Shown: one piece after another, positions 4,265 to 37,721 of the stretch
Layout of the letters: each line of letters starts with the position of its first letter
Position numbering within the stretch: position 1 is the stretch's first letter
Assembly (NCBI GenBank): GCA_903895055.1
Contig: CAITSL010000041.1
Span: 1-37,721, forward strand
Source: an uncultured bacterium
GTDB taxonomy: Bacteria > Patescibacteriota > Minisyncoccia > Phycocordibacterales > UBA9973
Direction of reading: 5' to 3'
Length of the DNA stretch: 37,721 bases
Position numbers and translations under genes: made by a program
The notes under the pieces: model-generated
The model's input: only the letters and a program-made list of their open reading frames with translations
Database searches by the model: none
Told to the model about the DNA's origin: nothing

Positions 4265-8042
<3,778 letters not shown>

Positions 8043-27609: not shown

Positions 27610-27623
27610 CTATATTTTATTTG

Positions 27624-27712
27624 CGGAGCCGGAGGGATTCGAACCCTCGAGGGGTTTTAAAGCCCCTGCATCTTTAGCAAAGATGTTACTTCGACCGCTC
27701 ATACACGGCTCC
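27624..27712 (-). tRNA. tRNA-Ser (anticodon GCU), class II
   Basis: Hand-folded 89 nt. Acceptor GGAGCCG/CGGCTCC, discriminator G, anticodon stem CATCT/AGATG with loop TTGCTAA. Variable arm AGGGG-CTTTAAAA-CCCCT, T arm GAGGG-TTCGAAT-CCCTC. Confidence 0.9.
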
Positions 27713-27805: not shown

Positions 27806-27892
27806 GGAGGCGTGGATGAGTGGTTTAAATCAGCGGTTTACTAAACCGCCGTTCCTTAATCGGAACCGTGAGTCCGAATCTCACCGCCTCCG
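27806..27892 (+). tRNA. Class II Ser-type tRNA with non-canonical anticodon ACU and T-loop TCCGAAT (functional variant or pseudogene)
   Basis: Hand-folded 87 nt. Acceptor GGAGGCG/CGCCTCC, discriminator G, D stem GAT/ATC, anticodon stem GCGGT/ACCGC with loop TTACTAA. Variable arm GTTCC-TTAATC-GGAAC, T arm GTGAG-TCCGAAT-CTCAC. Confidence 0.7.
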
Positions 27893-27932
27893 CAAAAAAA
27901 CAATTCGGGCTTGCGCTCGTTTTTGGTAGTAG

Positions 27933-28318: not shown

Positions 28319-30715
28319 ATGCAATTCAGTGACAAACTTGAAGCAAAATTTCGACTAGACGAGAATCAAAGGAGAGCTTTAAGGAAACTCGGCATTTTTT
28401 CGGTGGCGGATTTGCTCTATCATTTTCCTGTCAGATATTCGGATATCAGTGAAGTAAAACAAATTGCCAATATCATCCCTGGCGAGGTTGCGACAATTTA
28501 TGGAAAAGTTTCAAAATTAAAAACCAAAAAAGGATATCGTTCCAAAATTCCGATGGGCGACCCATTCGATAAAAAACTCAGGGTCGCCCCGAGCGCTTCG
28601 TCGAGGGGCGAAGGTGAGATATCGGATCTTTCCGGAAAAATAAAAATAGTCTGGTTTAATCAAGCCTATTTGGCAAAAATGCTCCATGAGGGAGAAAATG
28701 TAAAACTCACCGGAAAAATAACTCAGGGAAAACAGGGTTTGTATTTGGCCAATCCCGAATTTGAAAAAACCCCAAATATACCGATAGATTCACATGATAC
28801 TTTGTTTTTTAGCAAAGATGGTAAACAAGAAAATGCAGGGTTTTCTTATCCTATCTATCACGAAACTCGAGGTATCACTTCCAAGTGGTTTTATCATGCG
28901 ATTGAAAAAATTTTTAGAGACAAAACTTTGGAGAAGGTGGAAGATTACATCCCAAGTGATATTTTGGAAAAATACAATTTACCGACGCTGAAAACTGCCC
29001 TCATTTGGATTCATAAACCAAAAAATTCTCGGGATGCAGAAAGCGCGCGAAAGCGATTCGCTTTTGAGGAAGTTTTTTGCATTCAACTGGAACGCCAACA
29101 CGATAAAATCGAATACCGTAAAAATAAATCTTTTCAGATACAACCTGAATTTCCTAAAATTTTGAATCCCCGAGGGTCCCACTCCGAAGGAGAAGGGCGC
29201 AGGGGTGAAAAATTAGAGGAAATTCAGGTTGGTCCTGAAGTAAAAAGTTTTCTGGATCGTTTCCCGTTCGAACCAACCAATTCTCAGAAAAAATCTATTG
29301 AAACAATCTTGTCGGATATGGCGAGAAGTTTCCCAATGTCTCGCTTGCTCGAAGGTGATGTCGGCTCCGGCAAAACGGCTGTGGCCGCCACTGCCGCTTA
29401 TATTACAGTAATCCAAGAAAAGCCCCTCGATTCCACTCGGGGCAACCTGCAAATTTCAAAAAATTTGCAGGTTGCTTATATGGCCCCAACGGAAATTTTA
29501 GCTGCTCAACATTTCGAATCTTTCATCCAATATTTCAGACATTTGCCGATCAATATAGGGCTTATCACAGGCTCTGGTTGTAGGAAATTTCCTTCCAAGG
29601 TAAATCCTCTTGGCTGGACCGATATCTCGCGAGCGCAACTTTTAAAATGGACTCTGGGCGGGGAAATTTCTATTTTGATCGGCACTCATGCCTTGATTCA
29701 GAAAACGGTTAAATTTAAAAATCTGGCTTTGGTAGTGATAGACGAACAACACAGATTCGGCACTGCCCAGCGAAGAAAATTGGTCAGGAAAGACGGCATT
29801 GCTCCACATTTGCTTTCCATGACCGCCACTCCGATCCCCCGCACTTTGGCTCTCACTATTTATGGCGACTTGGATTTATCACTTCTCGATGAAATGCCCG
29901 CCGGGCGAAAACAAATCATCACCGAAATAATTACTCCGAACAAAAGGGATGAAACCTATGAAAAAGTCCGCGAAGAATTAAAAAAGGGCAGACAGCTTTA
30001 TGTCATCTGTCCGAGAATAGATGAACCAGATCCGGAAAAGCACCCCTACCCAACCTCCCCCTTAGCTAAGGGGGAGGAGCAAGGAGGGGGTGGATGGAAC
30101 GAGGTTAAAGCAGCAACTGCCGAAGCGAAGCGTTTGAAAAAAGAAATTTTCCGAGAATACGAAATCGGCGTGCTTCATTCAAAGATGTCTAAACAGAAAA
30201 AAGAAGAAGTAATGAAAAATTTTACCGAAGGGAAAATAAATATTTTGTGCGCGACATCTGTCGTAGAAGTTGGGGTCAATGTGCCAAATGCCACGGTGAT
30301 TATTATCGAAGGCGCAGAAAGGTTCGGCCTGGCGCAACTGCACCAACTTCGCGGACGGGTAATTCGAAGCAATGATCAAGCCTATTGCTATGTTTTTGCC
30401 TCCGACTCCGCCAAGGCTTCGCCGGACAAGGATGCTAAAAATAAAACTGTTCAACGACTTAAGGCTCTAATTACAGCCAAAAATGGTTTTGAATTGGCAG
30501 AACTGGACCTGACATTGCGTGGCGCCGGAGAACTTGGTGGTACGAAACAATGGGGCATCACCGACCTTGGGATGGAAGCAATCAAAAATCTGAAAATGGT
30601 CGAAGCTGCCCGGACCGAAGCGGTGCGCCTGATTTCCAAAGACCCCGAACTTTCCAAATATCCCCTTTTGAAACAAAAAGTTCACGAAAAAGCGGGAGAA
30701 TTTCATTTTGAGTAA
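28319..30715 (+). CDS. recG: ATP-dependent DNA helicase RecG, with four short GC-rich insertions
   Basis: 798 aa. Wedge-domain WFNQAYL, helicase motif I GDVGSGKT, MAPTEILAAQH, DEQHRFG, SMTATPIPRT, QLHQLRGRVIR. Confidence 0.92.
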   Translation: MQFSDKLEAKFRLDENQRRALRKLGIFSVADLLYHFPVRYSDISEVKQIANIIPGEVATIYGKVSKLKTKKGYRSKIPMGDPFDKKLRVAPSASSRGEGEISDLSGKIKIVWFNQAYLAKMLHEGENVKLTGKITQGKQGLYLANPEFEKTPNIPIDSHDTLFFSKDGKQENAGFSYPIYHETRGITSKWFYHAIEKIFRDKTLEKVEDYIPSDILEKYNLPTLKTALIWIHKPKNSRDAESARKRFAFEEVFCIQLERQHDKIEYRKNKSFQIQPEFPKILNPRGSHSEGEGRRGEKLEEIQVGPEVKSFLDRFPFEPTNSQKKSIETILSDMARSFPMSRLLEGDVGSGKTAVAATAAYITVIQEKPLDSTRGNLQISKNLQVAYMAPTEILAAQHFESFIQYFRHLPINIGLITGSGCRKFPSKVNPLGWTDISRAQLLKWTLGGEISILIGTHALIQKTVKFKNLALVVIDEQHRFGTAQRRKLVRKDGIAPHLLSMTATPIPRTLALTIYGDLDLSLLDEMPAGRKQIITEIITPNKRDETYEKVREELKKGRQLYVICPRIDEPDPEKHPYPTSPLAKGEEQGGGGWNEVKAATAEAKRLKKEIFREYEIGVLHSKMSKQKKEEVMKNFTEGKINILCATSVVEVGVNVPNATVIIIEGAERFGLAQLHQLRGRVIRSNDQAYCYVFASDSAKASPDKDAKNKTVQRLKALITAKNGFELAELDLTLRGAGELGGTKQWGITDLGMEAIKNLKMVEAARTEAVRLISKDPELSKYPLLKQKVHEKAGEFHFE
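28552..28616. repeat. GC-rich hairpin-forming island inside recG (insert 1)
   Basis: GGCGACCC (28556..28563) pairs with GGGTCGCC (28581..28588), and CGCCCC (28585..28590) with GGGGCG (28605..28610). Encodes DPFDKKLRVAPSASSRGEGE. Confidence 0.6.
29167..29206. repeat. GC-rich hairpin-forming island inside recG (insert 2)
   Basis: CCCCGAGGGTCCCACTCCGAAGGAGAAGGGCGCAGGGG, with an inner CTCC-GAA-GGAG hairpin and outer CCCC/GGGG. Encodes NPRGSHSEGEGRRGE. Confidence 0.55.
29422..29475. repeat. GC hairpin plus perfect 15-bp inverted repeat inside recG (insert 3)
   Basis: GCCCC...GGGGC (29422..29443), then GCAACCTGCAAATTT (29442..29456), loop CAAA, AAATTTGCAGGTTGC (29461..29475). Confidence 0.85.
30040..30097. 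repeat. GC-rich island with a perfect 24-nt palindrome inside recG (insert 4)
   Basis: CCTCCCCCTTAG|CTAAGGGGGAGG at 30054..30077, flanked by CACCCC / GGGGGTG. Encodes HPYPTSPLAKGEEQGGGGW. Confidence 0.85.
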
Positions 30716-37277: not shown

Positions 37278-37289
37278 TTGTTCGACTTC

Positions 37290-37721
37290 CTTCGACAAAG
37301 CTCAGGATAAATTGCTCACCATAAATGCCCATTCGAGTCCTCCCCCTCAGGTCGTCCCTCAGGGCACTCGACTACGTGTATTATTACGTTTGTATAAATT
37401 AAATTATTTTATCTTTATGTGTTGGGTGGCTTGCCACGAGCGAAAAAATAAAAAGCATTTTTTAAATGCTTTTTATTTTGTAGTCGAGTGGAGTATTACT
37501 ATCCTTTGCACGAACTTATTTTGAAAACAAAGAAAACTAAGTAATACGCTCCACGCCTCTCATTTTTCAAAACTTTTTACCACGCTCCGACAATGTGGTA
37601 ACTCAATGAACTCCGCCACGACGAGCTAAAGCTCGTCGTCTGCCCTCATCCCATCGCAAACTCCATGCATATTTAATTTCGCGCGGATTTTCTTTTTTCG
37701 GAATGGGCGATGGGATTGAGG
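37290..37721. other. Non-coding, GC-enriched, hairpin-dense region (unassigned structured RNA or cluster of palindromic elements); continues past the window edge
   Basis: No credible ORF. Four perfect or near-perfect stems: 37365..37375/37480..37490, 37488..37500/37540..37554, 37618..37626/37631..37639 and 37644..37657/37707..37721. Confidence 0.5.
37445..37479. terminator. Perfect 16-bp AT-rich hairpin, bidirectional terminator-like
   Basis: AAAATAAAAAGCATTT (37445..37460), loop TTT, AAATGCTTTTTATTTT (37464..37479). A/T runs on both sides. Confidence 0.55.

Follow-up and report, generated by a model that had tools for sequence, protein, structure and literature searches.

Covarying hairpins in an expanded loop of recG from an uncultivated Nomurabacteria-like bacterium

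The recG loop and its two hairpins

The recG gene studied here lies on a 37,721-nt stretch of contig CAITSL010000041.1, the whole of which is referred to as the window (GC content ~0.39). Its product is 798 aa long, compared with ~720 aa in most relatives, matches the Pfam families RecG_wedge, DEAD, Helicase_C and RecG_dom3_C, and aligned with T. maritima RecG (1GM5) at E = 2.6e-107. The nearest database relatives of the protein are labelled Nomurabacteria, Paceibacterota or Patescibacteria, and the host is an uncultivated, Nomurabacteria-like bacterium. The third of four inserts in this RecG occupies the loop between the Walker A motif and helicase motif Ia, and its DNA forms two adjoining hairpins. 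The features of the locus are listed below, each with the basis for its assignment.

28319..30715, plus strand: recG coding sequence, 798 aa (open reading frame (ORF) list, Pfam, 1GM5 match)
29363..29377, plus strand: Walker A codons GSGKT, residues 349-353 (regular expression on the translation; invariant in 119 homologs)
29417..29464, plus strand: loop expansion E367-N382 (EKPLDSTRGNLQISKN), from the helix after Walker A to the motif Ia strand (alignments, AlphaFold2)
29422..29443, plus strand: hairpin 1, GCCCC/GGGGC stem with a 12-nt loop (sequence, folding, alignment of 29 alleles)
29442..29456, plus strand: hairpin 2, left arm GCAACCTGCAAATTT, G375 through the first base of S380 (sequence read, repeat finder, own scan)
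29457..29460, plus strand: hairpin 2, loop CAAA (repeat finder, own scan)
29461..29475, plus strand: hairpin 2, right arm AAATTTGCAGGTTGC (sequence read, repeat finder, own scan)
29480..29494, plus strand: MAPTE codons, helicase motif Ia (alignments, regular expression)

The codons of the region read, in order, GSGKT, AVAATAAYITVIQ, EKPLDSTRGNLQISKN (29417-29464), LQVAY and MAPTE, with L383 and Q384 invariant among the 119 homologs. The AlphaFold2 model of the window RecG had a mean predicted local distance difference test score (pLDDT) of 61.7 and scores in the 80s for the helicase core. A helix was modelled at residues 350-365, coil at 366-383 and a strand at 384-389, and pLDDT was under 50 from residue 369 to residue 379; low confidence also marked the other three recG inserts. 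The model suggests that the motif I-Ia loop is probably a tolerant, disordered surface loop, and the peptide it encodes would most simply be a passenger.

Of 96 diverse RecG representatives, 78 have a spacing of 19 aa from GSGKT to MxPT, as does 1GM5; in the window the spacing is 34 aa, as the initial annotation of this DNA had stated (34 residues against ~19 in E. coli RecG). Its count of about 15 extra residues holds relative to canonical RecG, in which the insertion site is empty (19 aa), but not relative to the clade: the window loop is only 7 residues longer than the usual 27-aa form (RPNGQNFGNLQVAY, the commonest in the clade) and one residue longer than the common 33-aa allele (RPFDYAQGKPQNFGNLQVAY). 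Loops of 19, 24-25, 27, 31-32, 33 and 34 aa (the last being the window's type), and of up to 39 aa, were found in the clade, the 19-aa form being that of locus L035 and also of P0174 in the broader RecG clade. The alignments indicate that in the Nomurabacteria/Paceibacteria lineage the loop has grown from 19 residues to 24-39 and is highly variable. The reading frame is kept in the window.

Hairpin 1 pairs GCCCC (29422-26) with GGGGC (29439-43), or in another register CTCGA with TCGGG, and is homologous to a hairpin in relatives with the codons CCC TTC GAC TAC GCT CAG GGC (PFDYAQG). Hairpin 2 shares G29442 and C29443 with it. Both the repeat finder and our own scan identified GCAACCTGCAAATTT as the exact reverse complement of AAATTTGCAGGTTGC (15/15), confirming the GCCCC...GGGGC hairpin and the exact 15-bp inverted copy of adjoining native sequence that had been described initially. 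The right arm codes for the third base of K381, for N, L, Q and V, and for the first two bases of A386; it thus encodes NLQVA and lies in the conserved strand leading to MAPTE. The window has six distinct sites with perfect stems of at least 12 bp and short loops, and 20 shuffles gave none. Given the peptide GNLQISKNLQVA and the codon usage of the window, 15/15 pairing has a probability of P = 2.2e-4, and a perfect hairpin 2 requires the rare codons AAC (0.18), CTG (0.11) and CAG (0.25). The 76-nt region folded with z-scores of -5.1 as RNA and -5.2 as DNA. The inverted repeat is real, and chance is excluded.

Standard signals were not found at the site. A terminator scan of the window did not list it, the stem being followed by TTATATGGCC with no U tract, and a promoter scan gave neither a signal nor an excess there. 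When Rfam was run over the window at gathering score, only tRNAs passed and the recG hairpins were unmatched; a local Rfam E-value scan returned only generic, sub-threshold miRNA-like hairpin matches.

Loop codons and stem pairing among related alleles

The loop was compared across 160 related recG loci, of which 127 unique alleles were scored for pairing. At the codons of hairpin 2, most of the 127 formed 3-9 of the 15 pairs, a baseline that arises because the codons of the Leu-Gln dipeptide are self-complementary (CTG CAA versus TTG CAG), and intermediates with 10-13 pairs were also present. Between 12 and 15 pairs were reached in two groups of alleles that differ from each other in sequence. 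Group A (NLQIS.NLQ[VI]A) comprises the window, L037/L128, L001/L082, L088, L121 and L161/L162, with L084 as a decayed member, and group B ([RHK]LQTFGSLQ[TM]A) comprises L078, L125, L071, L117/L119 and L158. Mismatches in the near-perfect stems, compared by type (G-T or A-C) with an RNA or a DNA structure in view, were few and mostly at the terminal pair. The architecture of the window, with arms that have diverged yet are still complementary, recurred in no fewer than six further independent assemblies, whose protein identity was 73-78%. Backbone distances among the related loci were 0.16-0.24, so these are neither the same strain nor cross-assembly artefacts.

The origin of the left arm is visible in the codons of the window and of the 33-aa RPFDYAQGKPQNFGNLQVAY alleles.

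Window: AAG CCC CTC GAT TCC ACT CGG GGC AAC CTG CAA ATT TCA AAA AAT TTG CAG GTT GCT
33-aa allele: AGA CCC TTC GAC TAC GCT CAG GGC AAG CCC CAA AAT TTT GGA AAT TTG CAA GTT GCN

Each codon of N-L-Q-I-S in the left arm has its aligned counterpart in the K-P-Q-N-F of the 33-aa alleles, and the sole difference in length between the two is one codon upstream (QEKP versus Q-RP). The two segments are equal in codon number, and every difference between them within the arm raises complementarity. Because the arm codons align with existing loop codons, the left arm consists of converted codons and not of added DNA. The initial annotation had proposed that the inserted DNA includes an inverted duplication of its target flank, a claim not supported by this alignment, which runs one-to-one through K-P-Q-N-F-G. 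In group B the perfect stem measures 10 bp in L158, 13 bp in L117 and 16 bp in L125, a gradient of the kind that a quasipalindrome growing outward should give.

The two hairpins also occur apart from one another. About 20 alleles carry the GC-rich hairpin 1 and lack a good hairpin 2. Conversely, the same codons of L158 form a perfect repeat of 10 bp, and this allele has no GC hairpin; the initial annotation, which treated hairpin and repeat as a single structure, had itself named such an allele as the finding that would separate them. L158 and L160 (RPQDKNGKLQ.FG..) have perfect repeats of 9-10 bp, with AT-rich sequence replacing hairpin 1. In L084 both hairpins have decayed and the length of the loop is kept, which argues against an essential function. 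These comparisons indicate that the two hairpins are separable.

Covariation was assessed in a gap-free alignment of 29 sequences (alignment A1), with a shuffle control that ignores relatedness among the sequences. Changes on both sides of the stem were observed at 8 of the 15 pairs of hairpin 2 and at all five pairs of hairpin 1, in which 88% of cells pair across the 29 alleles. The observed covariation was reached by 0 of 500 shuffles, and the structure scored clearly better than slid registers. The outer codon pair of group A runs from AAC/GTT in the window through AAC/GTC in L088 (one mismatch) and GAC/GTC in L161 to GAT/ATC in L121, where Asn has become Asp and Val has become Ile. The Leu/Gln pair of this group is CTG/CAG or TTG/CAA and never mixed. 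In group B, some alleles have CGT/ACG (Arg with Thr) where others have CAT/ATG (His with Met), CAA/TTG is likewise exchanged for CAG/CTG, and a change of Asn to Ser (AAT to AGT) is paired with Thr ACT. Paired changes in hairpin 1 include TTC/CAG versus CTC/CGG (Phe/Gln to Leu/Arg), CCC/GGN versus TCC/GAC (Pro/Gly to Ser/Asp) and the synonymous CCC/CAG versus CCT/CAA.

Because the shuffle control ignores relatedness, a prospective test was made. From the protein P0104 (DDLQISKNLQVA) alone, the codons Asp = GAC and Val = GTC were predicted, and the DNA (L161/L162) agreed: GAC GAC TTG CAA ATT TCA AAA AAT TTG CAA GTC GCA. Taken together, the alleles indicate that pairing of the bases has been preserved at a cost to the peptide, even at the conserved Val of LQVAY, and a purely protein-level cause is thereby ruled out.

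Origin, spread and wider occurrence of the palindrome

Carriers of the group-A loop were not monophyletic on the RecG backbone, either in a neighbour-joining tree or by distances. The tree (703 columns) was star-like with loop states scattered across it, and recombination was seen in distances and in sliding-window identity. At a distance of 0.13, L081 is the nearest backbone relative of the window, and its short loop is unrelated. L037, in turn, is distant on the backbone (rank beyond 115 of 160); in a patch of ~180 nt around its loop, identity to its own backbone neighbour L036 drops to 0.57, and identity to the group-A alleles and L002 climbs to 0.86-0.96. The patch takes in ~90 nt of ordinary downstream coding sequence, 96% identical to L002, and because such sequence is included, the pattern in L037 indicates homologous recombination and not transposition.

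We consider it rather probable that hairpin 2 is a quasipalindrome in a tolerant loop, which intramolecular template switching produced and has kept perfect, and that the allele was spread by recombination patches. An ancestral ...Q.FG-NLQVA... segment would already have been partly self-complementary, because Leu-Gln is its own reverse complement. During DNA synthesis the nascent strand would fold back and copy the other arm, so that loop codons were overwritten with the reverse complement of the NLQVA codons (K-P-Q-N-F to N-L-Q-I-S) and the length stayed the same. Once near-perfect, the palindrome would maintain itself, a new mismatch being either undone or copied into its partner arm, and such copying would give instant compensatory changes that at times alter amino acids. 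The allele would then pass between lineages in short patches of homologous recombination, with the peptide as a passenger. The pattern matches the signature of quasipalindrome template switching in its prior imperfect repeat, length-neutral clustered changes, outward extension, paired changes and one-mismatch intermediates. We infer template switching as the molecular process, and likewise that the hairpin has no function. The structures are long-lived, and template switching, not a fresh insertion scar, explains them best. The snap-back or template-switch origin suggested initially thus stands as the best explanation of the complementarity, but not as a private or recent event, as the architecture recurs in L001/L082, L037/L128, L088, L121, L161/L162 and, decayed, in L084.

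Several observations weigh against this explanation. The star-like, recombination-affected RecG tree yields no ancestor and ties no multi-base change to any one branch, so the data are equally compatible with stepwise compensatory evolution under selection. One switch fails to explain the bases of the hairpin loop (mostly TTGG; CA[AC]A or CACG in group A), and it leaves the extra upstream codon, the F-to-L change and the Q-to-R change unexplained. Upkeep of 13-15 of 15 pairs across lineages with heavily diverged synonymous sites needs a high switching rate. Hairpin 1 covaries too with a stem of only 5 bp, which is short for template switching and may point to selection on the structure. Finally, the kinship of the sequences that the shuffle control ignores bears on the covariation itself.

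Such selection, in which the double hairpin in recG mRNA or DNA would serve a function and ordinary compensatory evolution would keep it paired, is in our judgement unlikely. The roles proposed are pausing of translation while domains fold, an RNase or processing site, binding of a protein to the palindrome, and a signal in replication or repair. A functional hairpin would account for the covariation of both stems, synonymous sites included, for the amino acids given up for pairing and for the folding z of about -5; other in-frame recG palindromes, such as insert 2, also stay paired as their sequences change. However, most recG alleles are without hairpin 2 (3-9/15 pairs) and many without hairpin 1, L084 lost both and retained its loop, L081 has its unrelated loop at a distance of only 0.13, and the site has no Rfam family beyond the generic sub-threshold matches, no terminator-like tail and no promoter excess. 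The stem sequences also differ between groups A and B, so that no common sequence-specific ligand is apparent. A site-specific mobile mini-element, akin to Rickettsia palindromic elements (RPEs), MITEs (miniature transposable elements with inverted repeats) or GC clusters, is a distinctly improbable alternative; it would be a selfish palindrome of ~54 nt, inserted in frame and guided by the inverted copy of its target, AAATTTGCAGGTTGC. The scattered backbones of the group-A carriers favour it, as do other GC-rich palindromic cores that return at different recG sites in different lineages, such as PRGSHSEGEGRRGEKF at the insert-2 site and the insert-4 site. The loose motif YTCGAY-N(2-9)-CTCRGG was also enriched, with 33 matches against 4.8 expected, those outside this loop falling in recG insert 1 (in both orientations), in L040, L050 and L137, and in a cluster between genes near 37291 of the window. 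Since 24 of the 33 lay at the same loop, the GC hairpin was rejected as a dispersed element. Searches with the 15-nt arm and the 22-nt GC hairpin at up to 3 mismatches gave chance-level matches only and no further copies in the window; 13-mers of this and of other loop inserts formed no families elsewhere in 1.18 Mb of related loci; and the repeat finder detected neither flanking direct repeats nor terminal inverted repeats at the module. Against a mobile element also stand the transfer into L037 of ordinary coding sequence along with the loop, the replacement of existing codons by the left arm and the independent occurrence of the two hairpins.

The two remaining explanations are essentially contradicted. 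A selected peptide repeat or beta-hairpin (NLQIS-x-NLQVA), with the DNA repeat as a by-product of self-complementary Leu-Gln codons, would be in keeping with the baseline of 3-9/15 pairs in all alleles and with the fact that the N-L-Q-I codons, when reverse complemented, read N-L-Q-V; in a beta-hairpin, moreover, the residues brought together would be those whose positions pair in the DNA stem. We judge it very improbable in view of the synonymous covariation (CTG/CAG versus TTG/CAA and CCC/CAG versus CCT/CAA), the N-to-D change that follows a synonymous GTT-to-GTC change, the P of 2.2e-4 for 15/15 pairing given the peptide, and the modelling of the segment as low-confidence coil. Hardly credible is a single recent and private snap-back insertion, in which one event of ~45 nt would have brought in the GC hairpin together with an inverted copy of the flank downstream. 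Such an event is favoured by the 15 bp of perfect complementarity to native flank and by the 15 aa gained over canonical RecG, but at least six other assemblies have the same architecture with arms that diverged and stayed complementary, the excess over the homologous 33-aa alleles is a single codon, and the GC hairpin is common to ~20 alleles that lack the repeat.

The third recG loop is one instance of a wider tendency to palindromes in these genomes. The gene for LigA, the NAD-dependent DNA ligase (ORF 5361..7490, minus strand), contains a GC-rich, near-perfect, in-frame hairpin of ~110 nt at 6106-6216 (RNAfold, -74.8 kcal/mol), whose ~37 aa split the C4 zinc finger. Its adenylation domain contains, at 6761-6796, an in-frame perfect inverted repeat of 17 bp with a 2-nt loop, AAGAGGCTAAACCTCTT TC AAGAGGTTTAGCCTCTT. 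Within recG, insert 1 (28565-28608) has two YTCGAY..CTCRGG copies in opposite orientation, and insert 4 (30054-30077) contains a perfect 24-bp palindrome, CCTCCCCCTTAG|CTAAGGGGGAGG. Insert 2 (29141-29231) is a palindromic element of ~90 nt with a GC-rich core coding for PRGSHSEGEGRRG; among its seven carriers the outer stems differ yet are complementary, with 25 bp perfect in L020. L087 has lost half of its copy. Core peptides related to insert 2 (PRGSHSKGEGRRGQKF, PRGSRFEP...EGRRGEK) were found at the insert-4 site in L076, L040, L026, L021 and L014, and this core is therefore mobile. The same recG loop as in the window also bears unrelated long hairpins, with stems of up to 17-21 bp, in L050, L059/L153, L080, L020/L102/L130/L155/L069, L026 and L049. 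The hairpin of L050, GGGGAAGGGCCGGCCTTCTCC AAAATCC GGAGAAAGTCGGCCCTTCCCC, looks homologous to that of L059, with many compensatory differences. L001 has an extra GC hairpin insert (CCCCGCCAAGGCGGGG) that lies ~75 nt downstream of the loop, at the YF.HLPINIG site, and is not in the window. Between genes, the window has at 37280-37380 a cluster of TTCGAC...CTCAGG type that includes TCGACTACG, a sequence similar to the PFDYAQG hairpin of the recG loop; the cluster is a non-coding instance of the motif family. ARAGORN also called a tRNA-Ser with the unusual anticodon ACT at 27806-27893 (plus strand) and a second tRNA-Ser(GCT) at 27623-27712, both below the Rfam tRNA gathering score.

We offer as a tentative generalisation, possible at best, that Nomurabacteria-type genomes of the candidate phyla radiation (CPR) carry in-frame palindromes (recG loops 1-4 and the two ligA sites) in which base pairing and not the peptide is conserved. 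These would persist either as template-switch 'replicators' or as selected RNA or DNA signals, dictate amino-acid changes that include the motif Ia strand of RecG, and spread by recombination patches.

Comparison with known systems

GC-rich palindromic clusters and double-hairpin elements are found in AT-rich organelle genomes. The recG loop is like the double-hairpin elements in having two adjacent GC-rich hairpins and differs from them in biological context. With repetitive extragenic palindromic (REP) sequences (PMC3733652) and bacterial interspersed mosaic elements (BIMEs) it has in common that it consists of short GC-rich stem-loops, here in an AT-rich genome; REPs, however, are extragenic, high-copy and linked to REP-associated tyrosine transposases (RAYTs), whereas the recG module is intragenic and single-copy in the window, where nothing of the REP kind was found, the ORFs not having been screened for RAYTs. 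RPEs provide a closer parallel as in-frame hairpin DNA at a tolerant surface site of a housekeeping protein, with a passenger peptide (PMC10969869). They differ in measuring ~100-150 bp and in having multiple copies and conserved peptides; the recG module is ~54 nt long and single-copy in the window, and one of its arms consists of native codons. Of the features by which RPEs and MITEs are recognised, the module has the tolerant in-frame site, and lacks a dispersed family, terminal inverted repeats with target-site duplication, and the size.

Hotspots of template switching at quasipalindromes are known in E. coli (PMC7202029). In the Ripley model, as studied by the Lovett laboratory in E. coli thyA and lacZ (PMC7202029) and also in yeast (PMC3820800), an imperfect repeat is perfected by clustered templated changes, one arm serving as template for the other with no change in length and with identity extending outward, and the recG loop is alike in each of these respects. 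The difference is that the recG case is a fixed, amino-acid-changing change in an essential-type helicase gene of several lineages, and that the switching is deduced from sequences. Template switching has also been proposed as the source of perfect stems in RNA genes and as the process that maintains them, with multi-base compensatory changes (PMC8794818). One-step perfect stems and multi-base compensatory upkeep are what recG has in common with that work (Monttinen and Loytynoja 2022), which concerns functional stems in genes for rRNA and non-coding RNA; the recG stem lies in a protein-coding loop and comes at an amino-acid cost.

What stands out in recG is that upkeep of a hairpin drives amino-acid covariation beside a conserved helicase motif. 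In this clean natural example, protein conservation, including that of the Val adjoining motif Ia, gives way to a process at the DNA level or to a nucleic-acid structure. If template switching is responsible, a mechanism put forward to explain how RNA stems arise would also shape protein-coding genes, and it may be unusually active in the reduced genomes of the CPR. The case also cautions that covariation does not always signify a functional RNA and that inserts of this kind are not always mobile elements. The recG loop is a variant of the template-switch or quasipalindrome footprint that resembles in-frame palindromic elements such as RPEs.

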